IMG/VR virus record: IMGVR_UViG_3300037067_027649 | Coordinates: 14,964 to 78,963 of that record | Length of the DNA: 64,000 nucleotides | DNA from: a virus | Taxonomy: Duplodnaviria; Caudoviricetes | Reading direction: 5' to 3' (one strand) | In this document: positions 1,484 to 51,101 of the stretch, piece after piece | How positions within the stretch are numbered: the stretch's first letter is position 1 | Layout of the letters: each line of letters starts with the position of its first letter | Made by a program: the position numbers and the translations under genes | The notes under the pieces: model-generated | The model's input: the letters and a program-made list of their open reading frames with translations, nothing else | Told to the model about the DNA's origin: nothing | Databases searched by the model: none

Positions 1484-1666
1484 CTAATTTTCATTTACTT
1501 TAAATAGAACATCTATAATTAAATCAGTGTTAATTAAATATCCATCTTTATCAAAATAAAGTGGTTTACCATTTTCAGAAAAAGTATTAGTTTTTCTAAA
1601 TTTGTTATCACAATATTCTTTATATTTTATTTTTTGACAAAATGTCAATTCTTTATATTTATTCAT
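1484..1666 (-). CDS. hypothetical protein (probable start MNKYKELTF)
   Basis: The ORF-track extension to 1705 runs into the attC hairpin; ATG at 1666. Confidence 0.6.
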   Translation of the reverse strand: MNKYKELTFCQKIKYKEYCDNKFRKTNTFSENGKPLYFDKDGYLINTDLIIDVLFKVNEN

Positions 1667-1669
1667 TAT

Positions 1670-1762
1670 AATAAACGGCTGCGTGTATGAAACGTAGCCA
1701 CGCACAACACTTGATATAAACCACAGACCTTAATTGGCTATGTTTTATACACGATGTTAGCA
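1670..1762 (-). other. attC-like recombination site
   Basis: AAC...GTT-bounded ~90-nt imperfect palindrome; arms CGTGTATGAAACGTAGCCA (1682-1700) and TGGCTATGTTTTATACACG (1735-1753) give 17 WC plus 2 G.T pairs. Confidence 0.65.
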
Positions 1763-2398
1763 CCAGTACGGGTTATTTAGTGGAATTTTAAATTTGGAAT
1801 ATTTATATATAAAGATAAAACGATGAGTAAAGAAATACGACAAATGATAGACAAAGTGAAAAACTTTAAACAATTTGTGAATGAACAACAAGAAATTGAA
1901 ACCAATATAAATAATAATTTTAGAAAATGGTTTAGTGGTAGTAAAGTTGTTTATAATGGAAAACCATTACCTGTTTATCATGGTTCTCATTCTGATTTTG
2001 AAGAATTTATGGGTGATACATATTTCACAGATGATTATATGAATGCTGACGGATATGCTGGTGGTGAATATGTATATGAGGTTTTTATATCAATAAAAAA
2101 TCCACTAATTATTGATGCAAAAGATAGAAAATGGGATGATATTGAAACCGAAGATGGTGTAACATCAACACAAGGTATTGTTGGTATGGTAGATAGAAGT
2201 AAATATGATGGGGTTATTTTTATTAACGTTAAAGATAGTTGGATAGATGATGTTGACTATCAAGATGCTTCAACCATATATGTTACATTTAAACCTAACC
2301 AAATTAAATCTATTGATAATGATGGAACTTGGGATATAAATGATAATAACATATATTCATAATGCTTAATCGAAGCACTTCCGTAGTATTGGTGCTAA
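1676..2398 (-). mobile_element. integron-like gene cassette inserted at a GTT site
   Basis: Ends TGTTAGCACCAGTA (1755-1768) and TATTGGTGCTAACA (2387-2400) are 13/14 inverted complements; attC-like hairpin at one end; removal restores a TAATG gene overlap. Confidence 0.7.
1823..2362 (+). CDS. ART-PolyVal-like ADP-ribosyltransferase-fold protein
   Basis: WFSGSKVV..G.PL.VYHGS, YFTDD, ISIKNPL, YDG, FKPNQIKS; leader ...VKNFKQFVNE; paralog of 49508..50179. Confidence 0.65.
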   Translation: MSKEIRQMIDKVKNFKQFVNEQQEIETNINNNFRKWFSGSKVVYNGKPLPVYHGSHSDFEEFMGDTYFTDDYMNADGYAGGEYVYEVFISIKNPLIIDAKDRKWDDIETEDGVTSTQGIVGMVDRSKYDGVIFINVKDSWIDDVDYQDASTIYVTFKPNQIKSIDNDGTWDINDNNIYS

Positions 2399-2520
2399 CA
2401 ATTAAATAACCAAATAAAAAATTTACATAGATACACACCAATTGTAATTAAACCAACTACACTTAATAGTAATACAACAACCCAAAAATAATCGGAATCA
2501 GTGTTAATAAGTTTTTTCAT
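2395..2520 (-). CDS. 41-aa membrane protein, C-terminus clipped by cassette insertion
   Basis: MKKLINTDSDYFWVVVLLLSVVGLITIGVYLCKFFIWLFNC*; the TAG stop lies in the cassette end. Confidence 0.55.
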   Translation of the reverse strand: MKKLINTDSDYFWVVVLLLSVVGLITIGVYLCKFFIWLFNC

Positions 2521-34549: not shown

Positions 34550-35407
34550 ATGAATAAAGAAATTCATTTTTTCGATTTAGATGGAACACTTTGGGAAATT
34601 CAAGGTAAAGTTTGGGTTATATCAAAAGATAATCCAAATGTACCTTTATTAAAAATAGATAGAGAAGAATTTAATCTTATAAAAAGTGGTTTATATAAAG
34701 AAGATAATATTCAAGTGAATTATAATGACCAATGGTATTGGATACCATCAGAATTAATGGATAGAATTAAAAAGAAAAGAAATTTAGATGAAGATAATAT
34801 TGGTTTTTCATTTAGAGAATTTTTTGATGTTAATTATATAAATAGAATAAAGATTATATTAAAAAACATAATAGATTTAAACAACAAAAAGATTGATGTT
34901 GGTATTATTACTGGTAGACATGATAGAGAAGGTGAACAAGAATTCTTAAATAAATTAAGAATTAAATTAAATGAATTAAATCTTGATATAAATAAAATGT
35001 ATTATCTTGGTGATAGATTTTCATATGAATTAAGAGATAATATATCTTTTTCTAAATCAAAACTTTTATTAGAACATTTAATTGGTATTAAAATAGAAAA
35101 AGATAAATTCGTACCTTTAAAACAAGATTGGTATAAAACTATTTATTTCTATGATGATGAAATACAAAATATATATACAGCTAATAAAATACAACAATTT
35201 TTTAATGAAATTATTAGAAATACAGATGATGAAGTATTTAATATTATAAAAGAAAAAATAACAGAAAACGAATTAATATTATATACTAATTATATATCTA
35301 ATAATGAATTAAATAAATTTAAAACAACAAAAATAATATTAAAAGAACCTGAAAAATTTCCTATAAAATTAGAAAATTTAAATGTTAAAAAATTTAAAGA
35401 ATTTTAA
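34550..35407 (+). CDS. HAD-superfamily protein
   Basis: FFDLDGTLW, ITGR, FYDD. Confidence 0.75.
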   Translation: MNKEIHFFDLDGTLWEIQGKVWVISKDNPNVPLLKIDREEFNLIKSGLYKEDNIQVNYNDQWYWIPSELMDRIKKKRNLDEDNIGFSFREFFDVNYINRIKIILKNIIDLNNKKIDVGIITGRHDREGEQEFLNKLRIKLNELNLDINKMYYLGDRFSYELRDNISFSKSKLLLEHLIGIKIEKDKFVPLKQDWYKTIYFYDDEIQNIYTANKIQQFFNEIIRNTDDEVFNIIKEKITENELILYTNYISNNELNKFKTTKIILKEPEKFPIKLENLNVKKFKEF

Positions 35408-36879
35408 TGTCAAGTTATAGTGGTGTACCAGTTGAAATAAGTTCGATATTAAGTATAACTTTTCCTGTTGATAAACTTGTTGATGAGTTTGTTGCTAGTG
35501 TATTTAATATAAAAGTGGATTTTGAAAAACAATCAAAAGAAGAAATTCAGAAGATTATTTATGAAGATAATAATGTTCCTACGGTGGATGAACCTGGATT
35601 GGCTACGTTGATAGACACATTTATTAGAATGATAATAAAATGTATTGGAAGTTTTGCACAACAAATATTCATATTAACAGAATTGGTTAAAAAAATAAAA
35701 GAAGCTTTAAAAAATCCAACATCAAAATCTAATGCAGAATATTTAGCATCTATACCTAAAAAAATAAAAGAACTTATAAAAGAAGTAAAAACGTTTTTTG
35801 CTGATACTGCTAAATGGATTATGGATAAGTTTTTAGGTGCTTTATCAAAAATTAATATACCAATACCATCTTTTGATTTTAATATCTTGGGGTTTAAATT
35901 AACAATACCTAAAATAGATAATAAAGGAGCATTAAATGATGATTCTAAATTAAATATACCAAAGCATGAGGATGATGAGTTAAAAGATATTAAAAATAAA
36001 ATAGAAGAATTAAATAATAAGATATCAAATTCTAATAAAAATATAGGAGATGATATTGATAATATAACAGATAAATTACAACCTGACTTAGATAAATCTA
36101 AGAAAAAATTAGATGATGGTGAAAAAAAATTAAAAGATAATAATGATAATATAAAAAAATTAGAAAATAAAAAAATTAGAACAGTAGCAGAAAACAAAAA
36201 ATTAAAATTGTTAAAAGAAGAAAATAAAAAATTAACAGAAAACGTAGAAACTTATAAAAAAGATTATGAAAGTAAAAAAGTTCAAATTGATGAACAAATG
36301 AATAAAATTGAAAATAATTTAAATACAAGTGATACAGAAACAGAATTAAAAGAAGCAAAAAACGAATTAAAATCTAAATTAGGTGAAAATCCAGTTTCAG
36401 CATATACTGAAAAAATTAAAGAAATGGTTATAAATATTATAAAATTTCCAGTTGATTTTGTATTTAATTTATTTAAACAATTATTAAAAGCTTTAGTAAA
36501 AATATTTTCATTTGATTTTGGAGAATTTGAAAAATTAATTCAAATGTTAAAACCGAATATTGATAGTGTCGGTCTTTTAATAGGTACTGTTTTAGATGGT
36601 TTCATAGATGGTTTTTCTACATTATATAAAGCAGCTAAAGATAAATTTGGTAATATAAAAGAAAATATAGAAGAAGTTGTTTTATATTTAAAAGATGAAG
36701 GTAATAAAATATTAGGTAGAACTGATTCTGATGAAAATAAAGAAAAATTGAATCAGACAATTAGTTATTTTGTTGTTGGTGTTAATATAATTACAGCTTT
36801 TCCAATTTTATTTTTAAATTTGATAGTAGAATTATTTAATTATGCTTTAAATCCAATAGGTATTAAGATTATAATTTAG
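35407..36879 (+). CDS. coiled-coil protein, possibly structural
   Basis: 490 aa; repeated hydrophobic flanks around a K/E/N-rich coiled coil. Confidence 0.65.
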   Translation: MSSYSGVPVEISSILSITFPVDKLVDEFVASVFNIKVDFEKQSKEEIQKIIYEDNNVPTVDEPGLATLIDTFIRMIIKCIGSFAQQIFILTELVKKIKEALKNPTSKSNAEYLASIPKKIKELIKEVKTFFADTAKWIMDKFLGALSKINIPIPSFDFNILGFKLTIPKIDNKGALNDDSKLNIPKHEDDELKDIKNKIEELNNKISNSNKNIGDDIDNITDKLQPDLDKSKKKLDDGEKKLKDNNDNIKKLENKKIRTVAENKKLKLLKEENKKLTENVETYKKDYESKKVQIDEQMNKIENNLNTSDTETELKEAKNELKSKLGENPVSAYTEKIKEMVINIIKFPVDFVFNLFKQLLKALVKIFSFDFGEFEKLIQMLKPNIDSVGLLIGTVLDGFIDGFSTLYKAAKDKFGNIKENIEEVVLYLKDEGNKILGRTDSDENKEKLNQTISYFVVGVNIITAFPILFLNLIVELFNYALNPIGIKIII

Positions 36880-36889
36880 TTTCAACATC

Positions 36890-37202
36890 ATGAACTACTA
36901 CTAAACTAAAGATTTAGCAGTTTCACGTTTCACAGACTTCTCCAACGAGAACGCCTCACCGTGTTTTTGTTTAAAGTCCAACTTGCGTTCCACAACCAGA
37001 CTATTTTTTTAAATTAAAATTTTTACTTTTTTGATTTTACGTGTTTTAAGATTTTAAAACACAACCAAATATATCAAAGAACTTTTTTATAAATTTATAT
37101 ATTAAATATTTTGGGTCTAAAAATGGTTTTTTTAAATATTTTTATTATATTTGAATAAAATTTTGAAATTCATCTACGAAACTAAAGATTTCGTAGTTTT
37201 CT
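36890..37202 (-). mobile_element. non-autonomous IS200/IS605 (ISDra2-like) miniature element with TnpB 3' / omega-RNA remnant
   Basis: Subterminal hairpins with identical CTAAAGA loop (36897-36921, 37174-37196); target TTGAA, right end TTCAT; remnant KQKHGEAFSLEKSVKRE. Confidence 0.75.
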
Positions 37203-48010: not shown

Positions 48011-49453
48011 ATGACAAAAGGAAATATTATTAATAATTTAACTGAGAACCAAAGAAGAGATTTTTATTTTAAAAATCATTATCCTGATTTATACAATGAA
48101 ATTATTCAAAGTAATAAATTAAATATTACATATTTTTCTCAAATTTTATATAATTATTGTTATGATATCAAAGAAATTCCTAAATGTAAAATATGTGGAA
48201 ACGAATTGAAATTTGTGAGATTCACAATTGGGTATAGAACATTTTGTTCTACAAGTTGTGCAATGCATGATAAAGATTTGATTAAAAAAAGAAATGAAAA
48301 AACTAAAAAAACATGTTTAGATAAATATGGCGTAGAAAATGTAATGCAAACAAAAGAATTTAAAGAAAAAATAAAAGAAACTTGTATTCAAAAATATGGG
48401 AAAGAATTTTTTATGCAAACTGATGAATTTAAAGAAAAAATGATAAAAAATAATAAAAAAAAATATGGTGTGGATTATTATTTTCAAACTGAAGATTTTA
48501 AAGAAAAAGTTAAAAATTATAGTTTGAATAAATATGGTATTGAACATTATAACCAAAGTGAAGAAATTATAAATAAAAAACATAAAACTAATTTAGAAAA
48601 ATATGGTAATATTTATCCAACAACATCAAAACAAGTAAAAGATAAAATAAAAGAAGCGTTTTTAAATAAATATAACTTCGAACATCATATGACATATAAA
48701 AAAGAAATGAATTTATTAAAAGATTTTTTTAAAAATAAGTCTGATGAATATTATAAAAAATATGAAAATGATATAATTTCTATTATTGATATAAATGATG
48801 ATATATTACATATGTTTGATAAAAATTGTAATCATGATTTTTATATAAACAAACAATTATTATATTTAAGAAACAAAAATAATCATAAAATATGCACTAA
48901 ATGTAATAATGTGTTTAGTAAAAATACATCATATATGGAAAAAGAGTTATTAGAATTCATTAAAAATAATGTTAAATATGGTGTTTTATATAATGTTAAA
49001 AATGTAATTAAATTAGAACTTGATATTTATATACCAGAATTGAGTGTTGCTTTTGAATTTAATGGTTTATATTGGCATAATGAATTATATAAAGATAAAT
49101 ATTATCATTATAATAAAACTAAATTATGTGAAGATAAAAATATTAGATTGTATCATGTTTATGAAGATGATTGGGTATATAATAATGAAAAAATAAAAAA
49201 TGATATTTTAAATATTTTAAATAAAAATTATTTAAAATTAAATGATGAAAATATTTTAGATAGAGGATGGAATTTATATAATATTAAAAATAAACATTAT
49301 ATTTACACAGAACCTAATTGTTATTTTATTATTGATAAAAAAAGATTTAATAGTTATTTGTTTATTAATAATAATGAATTTAACGATATTAATTTTTTAA
49401 AACAAAATGATATTTATAGAATATATGATTCTGGTTATATAAAAATAATATGA
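48011..49453 (+). CDS. homing-type endonuclease with KYG repeats and PD-(D/E)xK domain
   Basis: Repeated T..EKYG....Q; ELDIYIPEL..AFEFNGLYWH. Confidence 0.75.
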   Translation: MTKGNIINNLTENQRRDFYFKNHYPDLYNEIIQSNKLNITYFSQILYNYCYDIKEIPKCKICGNELKFVRFTIGYRTFCSTSCAMHDKDLIKKRNEKTKKTCLDKYGVENVMQTKEFKEKIKETCIQKYGKEFFMQTDEFKEKMIKNNKKKYGVDYYFQTEDFKEKVKNYSLNKYGIEHYNQSEEIINKKHKTNLEKYGNIYPTTSKQVKDKIKEAFLNKYNFEHHMTYKKEMNLLKDFFKNKSDEYYKKYENDIISIIDINDDILHMFDKNCNHDFYINKQLLYLRNKNNHKICTKCNNVFSKNTSYMEKELLEFIKNNVKYGVLYNVKNVIKLELDIYIPELSVAFEFNGLYWHNELYKDKYYHYNKTKLCEDKNIRLYHVYEDDWVYNNEKIKNDILNILNKNYLKLNDENILDRGWNLYNIKNKHYIYTEPNCYFIIDKKRFNSYLFINNNEFNDINFLKQNDIYRIYDSGYIKII

Positions 49454-49507: not shown

Positions 49508-50179
49508 TTAATCTTTATTTTCAAAAATATTATTATTATTTATATTAAAAGTTCCAACATTATCAACAGATTTGATATGATTTGGAAAAAACACAACATA
49601 TATTTTTTGTTCTTTTTTCCATTCTGGTCTATCGACTATAATACCATCATAACCTAATGTTTCATATAAAACTTTATAACCTTCTTGATAATCACCAAAA
49701 ACATTTAAAATATCATGAATCATATCAACATCAGTATCATTATATTCAAATTCATCGTTAACAGCTTTTCTAAGTAAATTATTATAACCTTCATGATTAA
49801 CATCACCAATATTTGAAAGAAAATTACCAGTACCATCTTTATCTAATTTATTAATAAATTTTGCTAATTGTGGTTTTGTAATTGTTTTCTTAGTATAATT
49901 TAATGGTTTTTCTATTTTAAGGTAAGCTTGAATTAATTTACCACCTTCTTTGTTAACATAACCTTTTGCTACATCTTCTTGGTCTGTGAAATAAAAACCT
50001 TTTCCTTCTCCTGTGCCATGAGTTCCTATCATTCTATATTGAAATTCTTTAAATTCATTATCAGTACCATGATATGTAATTAAAGGATTTCCGTTATCAT
50101 CAACAACTTTTGATTTACCAAACCAATTATAAAAATTATCATTAAGATTACTTTCAAATATTTTAAATTTTGTTATCAT
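49508..50179 (-). CDS. ART-PolyVal-like protein with leader
   Basis: MITKFKIFES; WFGKSKVVD..G.PL..YHGT, G.GFYFT, AYLKIEKP, GYDG, FFPNHIKS. Confidence 0.7.
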   Translation of the reverse strand: MITKFKIFESNLNDNFYNWFGKSKVVDDNGNPLITYHGTDNEFKEFQYRMIGTHGTGEGKGFYFTDQEDVAKGYVNKEGGKLIQAYLKIEKPLNYTKKTITKPQLAKFINKLDKDGTGNFLSNIGDVNHEGYNNLLRKAVNDEFEYNDTDVDMIHDILNVFGDYQEGYKVLYETLGYDGIIVDRPEWKKEQKIYVVFFPNHIKSVDNVGTFNINNNNIFENKD

Positions 50180-50204: not shown

Positions 50205-51101
50205 TTAGTCAACATAAAAAATATGTTTCAATTTTGCTGTTTTAACTAATATTTCGTCATCAGTTTCTTTTATGATATCTTTATTATCATAAACAAAATC
50301 AAAAATATTTAATTGCATATATCTATCACCAATAACATCTTTTGTGTTTATATTGGGATGATTTATTGGTTTTTCTTTCATTAAATATAAGTTTTCATAA
50401 TTGTAACCAACAACTAACTCATATATTTTTTTATTTTTTTTGTTTAATGGTATAGAAACTTCTTTAAATGATCTATATTTTGATTTTTCCATTTCTTCAT
50501 GACCTCTTATATAATAGGCATAGGCATGGTGTATCTTCTTAATAGGGTGATTTAATATAAAATTAATATAATCATCATCTTTTTTTATAACACTTTTTTC
50601 TTGAATATATAATTCTATATTTCTTTCTTTTATTAAAGTTATTATTTCTTTTAATAATTCTGGTATATTTTTTCTACCACTTTCAAAATAACCACCATCT
50701 GTTGTGAACCAAGCAGTTTCTTTTCTTAATCTTTCTAACCTACTTTTAATAATAATTATTTTTTTAATGTATTTAGATGCATTTTTAATCATATATGTTT
50801 TAACTTGTTCTTCTCTTTCATCATTAAAATATATATCAGTATTAGATTTATAAACATATGGTATTATTTTATAATTATTTGATAATTTATCACCATCAAT
50901 TTCAAGTTTAAATATAGATGCTGGACTATCACCAAGATAACCACTTAACATTTTATTTCTTGTTAATGATATATTAGAAAAATTTTTAGATGAAATTACA
51001 TTATTTTTTAAAATATAAAATAGTTTTTCAAAATCCACTATATGATATAATGAACCTAAATTTTTATATTCTAATAAAAAATCTATTAATTTTGTTTTCA
51101 T
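50205..51101 (-). CDS. DarT-like/ART-fold protein with leader
   Basis: LYH......ILKNN.I, ISLTRN, IDGDKLSNNYKI.PY, EREEQV; homologous to the 647 domains. Confidence 0.55.
   Translation of the reverse strand: MKTKLIDFLLEYKNLGSLYHIVDFEKLFYILKNNVISSKNFSNISLTRNKMLSGYLGDSPASIFKLEIDGDKLSNNYKIIPYVYKSNTDIYFNDEREEQVKTYMIKNASKYIKKIIIIKSRLERLRKETAWFTTDGGYFESGRKNIPELLKEIITLIKERNIELYIQEKSVIKKDDDYINFILNHPIKKIHHAYAYYIRGHEEMEKSKYRSFKEVSIPLNKKNKKIYELVVGYNYENLYLMKEKPINHPNINTKDVIGDRYMQLNIFDFVYDNKDIIKETDDEILVKTAKLKHIFYVD

Follow-up and report, generated by a model that had tools for sequence, protein, structure and literature searches.

Recent work has found genes for defence against phages stored in the integrons of bacteria. 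In CTX-type phages, a folded single-strand attP is recombined by XerCD. T4-type phages reportedly contain PeSL (promoter-early stem-loop) cassettes; PeSLs carry early sigma-70-type promoters and recombine on the basis of homology, and to our knowledge no dedicated recombinase, self-matching ends or leader has been described for them. The Alt protein of phage T4 is an ADP-ribosyltransferase that is packaged and injected. The T4 internal proteins are diverse, and a capsid targeting sequence is all that they share (Rao and Black 2010, PMC3012670). The closest prior description to the locus presented here is that of attC clusters in virulent phages, methyltransferase cassettes included (Qi et al. 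2023, PMC9892861). A literature search, which was not exhaustive, found no phage platform with an insert-less recombinase and no promoter-plus-leader cassettes.

The window (the whole stretch of DNA that was analysed, 64,000 nt) is part of an IMG/VR record of 78,963 bp with 21% G+C, which is about 11% complete. The record encodes a 1175-aa tail sheath protein, a sigma factor, an NAD-dependent ligase and an Hsp70, and is thus a piece of a very large contractile-tailed phage. Positions 1677–2399 of the window are best explained, with somewhat better than even confidence, as a solitary mobile cassette of a phage integron-like system, which has its own promoter and carries a leader-tagged ADP-ribosyltransferase.

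TAnnTTTG-type boxes, typical of Bacteroidota promoters, are found before many resident genes of the window, and AATATATA(A/T)A-type boxes precede a second set of resident genes. A TAnTATATTTG box (Bacteroidota -7 type) is found before roughly a dozen of the resident genes, which suggests a Bacteroidota host for this 21% G+C phage.

The cassette and its borders

The elements of the locus, together with the resident genes referred to below, are as follows (positions are those of the window; ^ marks a boundary or crossover point):

1484–1669, minus strand: resident ORF, 61 aa; before insertion, translationally coupled to the ORF at 2395–2519
1677–2399, plus strand: solitary cassette, 723 nt; left junction ...TAAAC^GGCTG, right junction ...GCTAAC^AATT
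1682–1753, plus strand: recombination-type hairpin; arms 1682–1700 and 1735–1753, 34-nt loop
1756–1771, plus strand: 5′ arm (R′-like); GTTA, 4-nt variable core GCAC (1760–1763), then CAGTACGG (8 nt)
1780–1814, plus strand: promoter-like module, with DNA-level conservation with the cassette in other phages
1823–2362, plus strand: ORF, 179 aa, ART-PolyVal ADP-ribosyltransferase
1823–1885, plus strand: 21-codon leader ending F-V-N-E, putative capsid-targeting propeptide
1886–2362, plus strand: ADP-ribosyltransferase body with stop codon, ART-PolyVal PF18760
2363–2399, plus strand: 3′ tail; R″-like arm 2381–2399, with variable core GTGC (2392–2395) and TAAC (2396–2399)
2395–2519, minus strand: resident small membrane-type ORF, 41 aa; its last codons and stop are now supplied by the cassette end
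49508–50179, minus strand: distant paralogue among the resident genes, ART-PolyVal; its short leader ends I-F-E

The order of elements in the cassette is hairpin, 16-nt arm, promoter-like module, 21-aa leader, enzyme and complementary arm. AAC is found at both junctions, so that the borders could equally well be set one base to the left, at 1676–2398. The stem of the hairpin is 19 bp, two G.T pairs included, and it is set off by spacers of 5 nt (1677–1681) and 2 nt (1754–1755). The 3′ arm complements the 5′ arm except at one G.T pair and for a bulge of 2 nt, and other cassettes show these two irregularities as well. The cassette ends pair through their GCAC and GTGC cores. An earlier note, made from the letters alone, had placed an attC upstream of the gene and referred to inverted GTTAGC/GCTAAC ends and hairpins. 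These are the hairpin at 1682–1753 and the arms at 1756–1771 and 2381–2399, and all other items that it listed, including the N-terminus as it was quoted, are also present in the sequence.

The 11-mer core of the window arms has no other copy in the window at 0–1 mismatch; the 19-mer at 1753–1771, which includes the 5′ arm, has exact copies in 13 further viral contigs. These features go beyond chance expectation. With a covariance model trained on related sites, the window site itself among them, this site scores 85.8 bits and the next best window match 14.7 bits. By this model it is the single site of its family in the window, and none is found beside the resident paralogue at 49508–50179.

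Of all non-coding G+C peaks in the 79-kb record, the richest 40-nt stretch lies in this hairpin. The tRNA and Rfam scans of the window gave no match, and so this G+C-rich hairpin is not a known RNA gene. The compositional outlier is the non-coding hairpin rather than the gene. The gene had been judged by eye to be more G/C-rich than its neighbours; this is correct in direction (27.8% GC versus 21.2 ± 4.2% for 134 ORFs), but the difference is mild (z 1.57, rank 13). In the codon-usage check that had been proposed, the fit of the gene is 14th worst of 93, and its GC3 is 13.3% versus 10.0 ± 4.0% (z 0.83).

A second non-coding G+C-rich island, with up to 55% in 40 nt, is present at 36915–36992, immediately following the ORF at 35407–36879. 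An ORF of >30 aa, an Rfam match and a match to the cassette-site model were sought in this island and none was found.

In-silico deletion of 1677–2399 restores a minus-strand ORF of 43 aa, which begins at 2519 and gains two more codons and a TAA. This TAA overlaps the ATG of the ORF at 1669–1484 (TAATG), which is also on the minus strand. Such an overlap is typical of coupled phage gene pairs and argues for a base-precise insertion. This reconstruction of the empty site, like 63 array/recombinase junctions of related contigs, places the borders at AA^C on the gene strand (G^TT on the opposite strand). A homologue of the ORF at 1484–1669 was sought in order to find a relative with an uninterrupted gene pair, and none was found. 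A DNA query with positions 1400–2700 gave no match in 50,697 deposited phage genomes, and the protein matches in these genomes are only 28–37% identical.

Promoter-like module, leader and enzyme

Related loci in IMG/VR contigs (L numbers) were gathered via the enzyme, the arm, the leader and the recombinase. In the cassettes of other phages, conservation at the DNA level encompasses 35 nt 5′ of the ATG. In the window this module holds TATTTATA (1800–1807) and ATATATAAA (1805–1813), and TTTATATATA, which the earlier note had placed just before the ATG, is at 1802–1811, 11 nt from it. The 9-mer ATATATAAA has 31 copies in the record. It is found 1–60 nt before a same-strand start nine times, as against 1.6 expected under uniform positions, and the tail sheath gene and the resident paralogue are among the nine genes concerned. 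In three relatives a TATTTATA-type box is located about 30 nt upstream of the prohead protease genes; the capsid genes of relatives sit within operons, and their upstream regions are uninformative on promoters. Since the cassette is antisense to the surrounding operon, its gene needs a promoter of its own, and by its motifs the module fits a late promoter. Judged by a crude motif test, no more than about 20% of cassettes overall have a recognisable promoter. Thus the earlier proposal that the cargo brings its own promoter applies to the leader-bearing subclass described below (late-like motif in 30/32) but not to cassettes in general.

A DNA-pattern scan for the last nine leader residues matched 32 stretches, and the full leader was found on 28 distinct metagenomic ORFs with unrelated bodies (those of L015–L018 counted). 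A hairpin site is present on at least one side of 22 of these 28 ORFs (upstream in 20, downstream in 14). The refuting condition set in the earlier note, that this N-terminus is rarely associated with attC-like ends, therefore does not apply. Pfam matches are lacking for the majority of the leader cargoes; the exceptions include a GNAT acetyltransferase and a weak match to ART-PolyVal. When the N-termini of 190 cassette ORFs were clustered without reference to any motif, exactly two large families were obtained, of 17 and 15 ORFs. Both end [YF]-x-N-E and are found on unrelated bodies, and they make up the 32 ORFs with the high incidence of the late-like motif given above.

The leader tags end F-[VILM]-N-E and homology stops past the Glu; identity falls to 50% directly after E21. 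The end of the leader would coincide with the expected protease site. Among 26 distinct leader DNAs, codon position 2 is 98% conserved and position 3 only 77%, and one leader arginine is encoded by five different codons. This synonymous variation with kept residues shows that selection acts on the leader peptide.

Genes for gp23-type capsid proteins are present in all five cassette-bearing relatives searched, three of them complete genomes, and Peptidase_S77 (gp21-type prohead protease) is present in four of four. Thus the cassette platform sits in T4-type jumbo phages. The capsid proteins of these relatives have I-N-E or L-T-E near residue 60, the position where T4 gp23 is trimmed. In the 79-kb record, which covers about 11% of its genome, neither a gp21-type prohead protease gene nor a gp23-type capsid gene was found. 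The tail sheath of the window phage is only 26–28% identical to the sheaths of platform-bearing phages (C-terminal domain), and by this comparison it is only a distant relative of them.

The cassette leader resembles the tags of T4 IPI-III and Alt in being a short conserved N-terminal segment on unrelated, fast-changing proteins, and in ending aliphatic-x-Glu, a form suited to the gp21 protease. It differs from the T4 tag in sequence and in its length of 17–21 residues. The leader genes also lie in recombinase-linked, hairpin-bounded cassettes, unlike the T4 ip loci, where exchange is homologous.

The leader could instead serve as another address (membrane, tail or partner protein), or as an expression head for translation initiation or a recombination patch. 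The promoter and leader do travel as one DNA block, and the T4 tag is shorter, about 10 residues. Still, this alternative is considered unlikely, because it is the residues rather than the codons of the leader that are kept, and because both leader families end [VILF]-N-E, which resembles the gp21-type cut sites in the capsid proteins of relatives. The T4-type head genes of these relatives, and the resident proteins of the record that start with T4-like tags (e.g. 647), also argue against it. By analogy with the T4 system, the preferred reading is that the leader directs the enzyme into the phage head late in infection, is cleaved off behind its Glu, and allows the enzyme to be injected.

Several tagged ART-fold genes are present in the record (647, 50205, 43374 and 49508). 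Two of these, 647–1480 and 50205–51101, encode ART-like proteins with T4-like tags at the N-terminus, and the protein of 647–1480 matches Tox-ART-HYD1. The resident ART pair is adjoined by a 480-aa ORF at 48011–49453, which has repeated DUF7487 units and a C-terminal nuclease-like part and may be a homing-endonuclease-type gene.

The cassette ORF matches Pfam ART-PolyVal at residues 45–167 with 69.2 bits, versus a gathering cut-off of 31.2 bits (8e-19). The structure model is poor (AlphaFold with a 7-row alignment, pLDDT 53). The domain belongs to the same family as the ART-PolyVal of polyvalent proteins (PF18760), but in the window it stands alone behind a cleavable-looking leader. An ART domain in the polyvalent-protein form, 52% identical and embedded in an ORF of >2000 aa, was seen at L012:166-6432.

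The protein of 49508–50179 also matches ART-PolyVal (7e-27). The paralogy between the two genes reported in the earlier note is real but distant: BLASTP shows 30% identity (E 1e-15). The window enzyme is 71–76% identical to cassette-borne homologues in L004, L005 and L007. The gene is the terminal member of cassette arrays in related phages, where a conserved attI-like sequence adjoins it. As it is closer to these than to the resident paralogue, the gene was acquired and not duplicated in place.

The window cassette is a mosaic. Its head (arm, promoter and leader) and its short 3′ tail match the GNAT cassette of L017, and its body matches the enzyme of L004/L005, which has another leader and a long tail. 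The nearest homologues of the window enzyme bear the other leader, and the joint is exactly at the shared N-E codons. This points to two levels of exchange, i.e. of whole cassettes at sites, and of bodies inside a constant head-and-tail frame; with an L017-like frame around an L005-like body, ordinary homologous recombination also moves cargo. The window cargo circulates in an AT-rich, phage-only pool. The suggestion that it is foreign DNA pre-adapted to the phage is not upheld, given this pool and the swapped body within a head-and-tail frame. The L017 cassette was considered as a second solitary insertion and rejected, as its left side is a normal arm with one C-to-G change; its right side resembles an attI remnant.

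The GCAC core of the window cassette is also present at L029:99-720 and at 12 similar loci (L019–L031), which encode DNA methyltransferases of about 200 aa. In these the ATG is inside the 5′ arm and the TAG stop inside the 3′ arm. The possibility that the window cassette replaced a methyltransferase gene, raised by the shared 19-mer, was rejected because the methyltransferases are cassettes themselves.

The site family and its recombinase

The related contigs contain a repeated tandem unit: an arm ending in TAAC, a spacer of 4–5 nt, a hairpin, a spacer of 1–2 nt, an arm starting with GTTA, and a gene. A strict regular expression for the arms under-calls the sites, and a second arm type exists; therefore a structure-based finder was used. 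With it, 384 oriented sites were identified, along with 266 distinct cassettes whose median length is 413 nt. In 380 sites the median length is 117 nt, the 5′ spacer is mostly 4–5 nt and the 3′ spacer mostly 1 nt. A G follows TAAC in 96% of these and a T precedes GTTA in 97%; it should be noted that the finder demanded TAAC and GTTA, and those four letters are fixed by construction.

The sites have the form of attC, that is, an imperfect palindrome closed by AAC ... GTT with unpaired spacers. The classical R′ and R″ consensus sequences are rare: 32 of 380 sites fit GTTRRRY at R′, 31 of 380 fit RYYYAAC at R″, and the window sequence is GTTAGCA.

The two ends of a cassette match each other. When the core that follows GTTA upstream of a gene is compared with the one that precedes TAAC downstream of it, a mean of 3.22 of 4 positions are complementary, the match being perfect in 182 of 266 cassettes, with 56 different cores. 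Across one hairpin the mean is 1.51, which is no better than in shuffled pairs (1.42 ± 0.06, maximum 1.62 in 1000 shuffles). Self-matching ends are the logic of integron cassettes, in which the single self-matching site of a circular cassette is split on insertion. Only three cassette pairs are informative on whether the upstream or the downstream hairpin travels with the cargo, and they divide two to one, too few for a decision.

An alignment of 62 diverse sites shows compensatory changes in 14 of 21 predicted pairs. The G.T pairs in all stems lie on the mRNA-sense strand, and two of them are nearly invariant. The coding strand folds best, since its stem G.T pairs turn into A.C on the opposite strand. 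It corresponds to the "bottom", recombining strand of classical usage. As the mRNA has this strand's sequence too, an RNA role is possible. The hairpin loops are constrained (alignment columns about 50–90) and a TTcAAATTAgCAC-like stretch recurs in them; GAAGCAC and GAAACAC motifs recur in cassette tails. These recurrent motifs may be binding sites for an accessory protein.

In one contig, a gene for a 285-aa tyrosine recombinase (L032:1105-1959) abuts the last cassette. This protein has 217 relatives in IMG/VR. Across 80 recombinase loci, the 303 kb of DNA upstream of the gene contain 257 sites, 253 of them co-oriented with it, and the 421 kb downstream contain 5. The junction in 63 distinct loci consists of a variable core-TAAC followed directly by TAT(T/C)ATATATA, with the start codon about 40 nt further on. 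This conserved junction between array and recombinase gene is an attI-like arrangement. A recombinase homologue is present in all three complete jumbo genomes tested (362, 362 and 288 kb). In two of these, disrupted forms were seen, a fragment with a TGA (G005:C1:15098-15490) and a gene with an in-frame TAA (G009:C1:55310-56143); arrays may often outlive their recombinase.

The best solved relative of the recombinase is archaeal XerA (4a8e, 2.5e-35). Aligned with VchIntIA (2a3v), it has 22 residues (query 197–218) opposite 73 in that chain (181–253), and thus lacks the IntI insert of about 50 residues between patches II and III; on TIGR02249 it scores 156 bits, under the 265-bit cut-off. This insert is thought necessary for integron chemistry, and its absence counts against an integron-like reading.

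Of the 217 cassettes whose open reading frame is at least 50 aa long, 211 have it directed at the recombinase, with the GTTA arm before it and the TAAC arm behind it, and its stop is within 20 nt of the TAAC end in 120 of these 211. Classical cassettes are promoterless, are read from Pc and have ORFs directed away from attI; here the ORFs point the other way, and the leader subclass has its own promoter-like module. The gene of the window is antisense by classical polarity, where G^TT is at the 3′ end of the site. Hence the inverted orientation that the earlier note described is correct if polarity is set by the crossover point, but it is the rule of the cassette family and not a special adaptation of the window cargo.

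The platform resembles integrons and CALINs (attC clusters that lack an integrase) in its arrays of single-gene cassettes, in the palindromes closed by ...AAC / GTT..., in the pairing of cassette ends, in the tyrosine recombinase and attI-like site at one end of the array, in the apparent insertion at a secondary site at G^TT, and in the frequency of DNA methyltransferases as cargo. It is unlike integrons in several respects: the recombinase is short, Xer/XerA-like and without the IntI insert; only 8% of the arms fit GTTRRRY, and the arms are up to about 18 nt long; the reading direction of the ORFs is towards the recombinase and opposite to classical polarity; cassettes of one subclass are equipped with a promoter and leader of their own; and the platform is housed in T4-type jumbo phage genomes. 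With CTX-type attP it would share an Xer-type enzyme acting on a hairpin of two inverted half-sites in single-stranded DNA; the CTX-type system differs in that a whole phage genome enters the host dif site and no cassettes are moved within the phage. With PeSLs it shares small novel phage genes between repeated promoter-plus-hairpin elements, and modular shuffling.

Another explanation is that the hairpins and arms have a regulatory function at the RNA or DNA level (as terminators, processing sites or PeSL-like promoter/stem-loop repeats) and that the gene arrived by short-homology recombination between such repeats. The strand bias and near invariance of the G.T pairs, the conserved loops, and the swapping of cargo within a constant head-and-tail frame at the shared N-E codons are in accordance with this, as is the failure to find any tyrosine recombinase in the 79-kb record (about 11% of the genome), which also counts against site-specific entry. 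It is nevertheless quite unlikely. The sites are tied to one recombinase gene by the count of 257 versus 5 and by the conserved junction, cassette ends match each other and not the neighbouring ends across the hairpin, and the 723-nt insert is base-precise at an AAC in surrounding DNA that has no repeat homology. Site-specific movement of a cassette therefore remains the preferred reading.

In a scan of bacterial and archaeal genomes, the site was found only on MAG contigs, whose taxa are mutually inconsistent. Dense arrays, with up to 12 sites in 5.7 kb, are seen on short contigs (L148, L151, L158 and other MAG contigs) that were binned as Methanolobus, Patescibacteria, Saccharibacteria, Gammaproteobacteria and others. 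Most of these array-bearing MAG contigs are probably mis-binned phage DNA. One site match is on a 2.9-Mb Bacteroidales contig (L168), and a Crocinitomicaceae contig (L150) has four sites adjoining a 41%-identical recombinase on the opposite strand.

The cargo was sampled by taking 10 random cassette ORFs beside recombinase genes (among them L079:4280-4912, L079:3489-4058, L099:4442-5335 and L068:888-1952). The sample includes a homologue of the Tad6 type I Thoeris inhibitor (4.6e-41), MT-A70 and N6_N4 DNA methyltransferases and an RNA ligase. In their cargo, the arrays look like libraries of genes for counter-defence.

Proposed mechanism and significance

It is very unlikely that the cassette is merely the inert remnant of a stray insertion, with a gene that has lost its expression or function in this phage: the site is solitary with no recombinase in view and the insert, antisense to the operon, splits a translationally coupled gene pair, but the ORF is intact with all family-invariant residues kept and 71–76% identity to homologues, the promoter module and both arms are intact, and codon usage is near that of the resident genes.

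The reading of the locus as a mobile, expressed cassette leads to the following proposal. The cassette, which sits away from the arrays, would have entered a secondary site between two overlapping genes, antisense to both, by site-specific recombination. A circular cassette with one folded site (arm, hairpin, arm) would recombine with phage DNA at an AAC, with a crossover at AA^C on the gene strand, and the enzyme would be the short Xer-like tyrosine recombinase. As the gene is antisense to its surroundings, it would be expressed solely from the promoter-like module that travels with it, whose 9-nt core is also found before the tail sheath gene of the phage. The 21-residue helical leader ending V-N-E would then carry the enzyme into the prohead core, in analogy to the T4 internal proteins and Alt, and would be clipped off behind its Glu by a gp21-type protease. 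Injected along with the DNA, the mature enzyme would modify a host target as the following infection begins.

The more general proposal, for which confidence is about even, is that T4-type jumbo phages run an integron-like platform of their own. In this platform, one class of cassettes would combine a late promoter, a packaging propeptide and an effector as a plug-in unit, so that a single recombination event alters the set of injected proteins, and the unit would work even in a distant phage, such as that of the window, into which one appears to have been inserted. The idea of phage-specialised cassettes put forward in the earlier note is supported in this form, i.e. by a phage-borne recombination platform with a subclass that has both the late-like motif and the leader.

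The phage platform looks like a counterpart of the defence-storing bacterial integrons: a recombinase-linked library in which DNA methyltransferases, a homologue of the anti-Thoeris protein Tad6 and an RNA ligase are among the cargo sampled. One subclass of its cassettes looks built for delivery in the virion. If the leader is a packaging tag, dozens of unknown small proteins would be flagged as injected effectors by sequence alone, and the promoter-plus-leader head would be a natural tool for loading foreign proteins into phage heads. The platform would also offer a testable case of integron-type recombination without the IntI domain.
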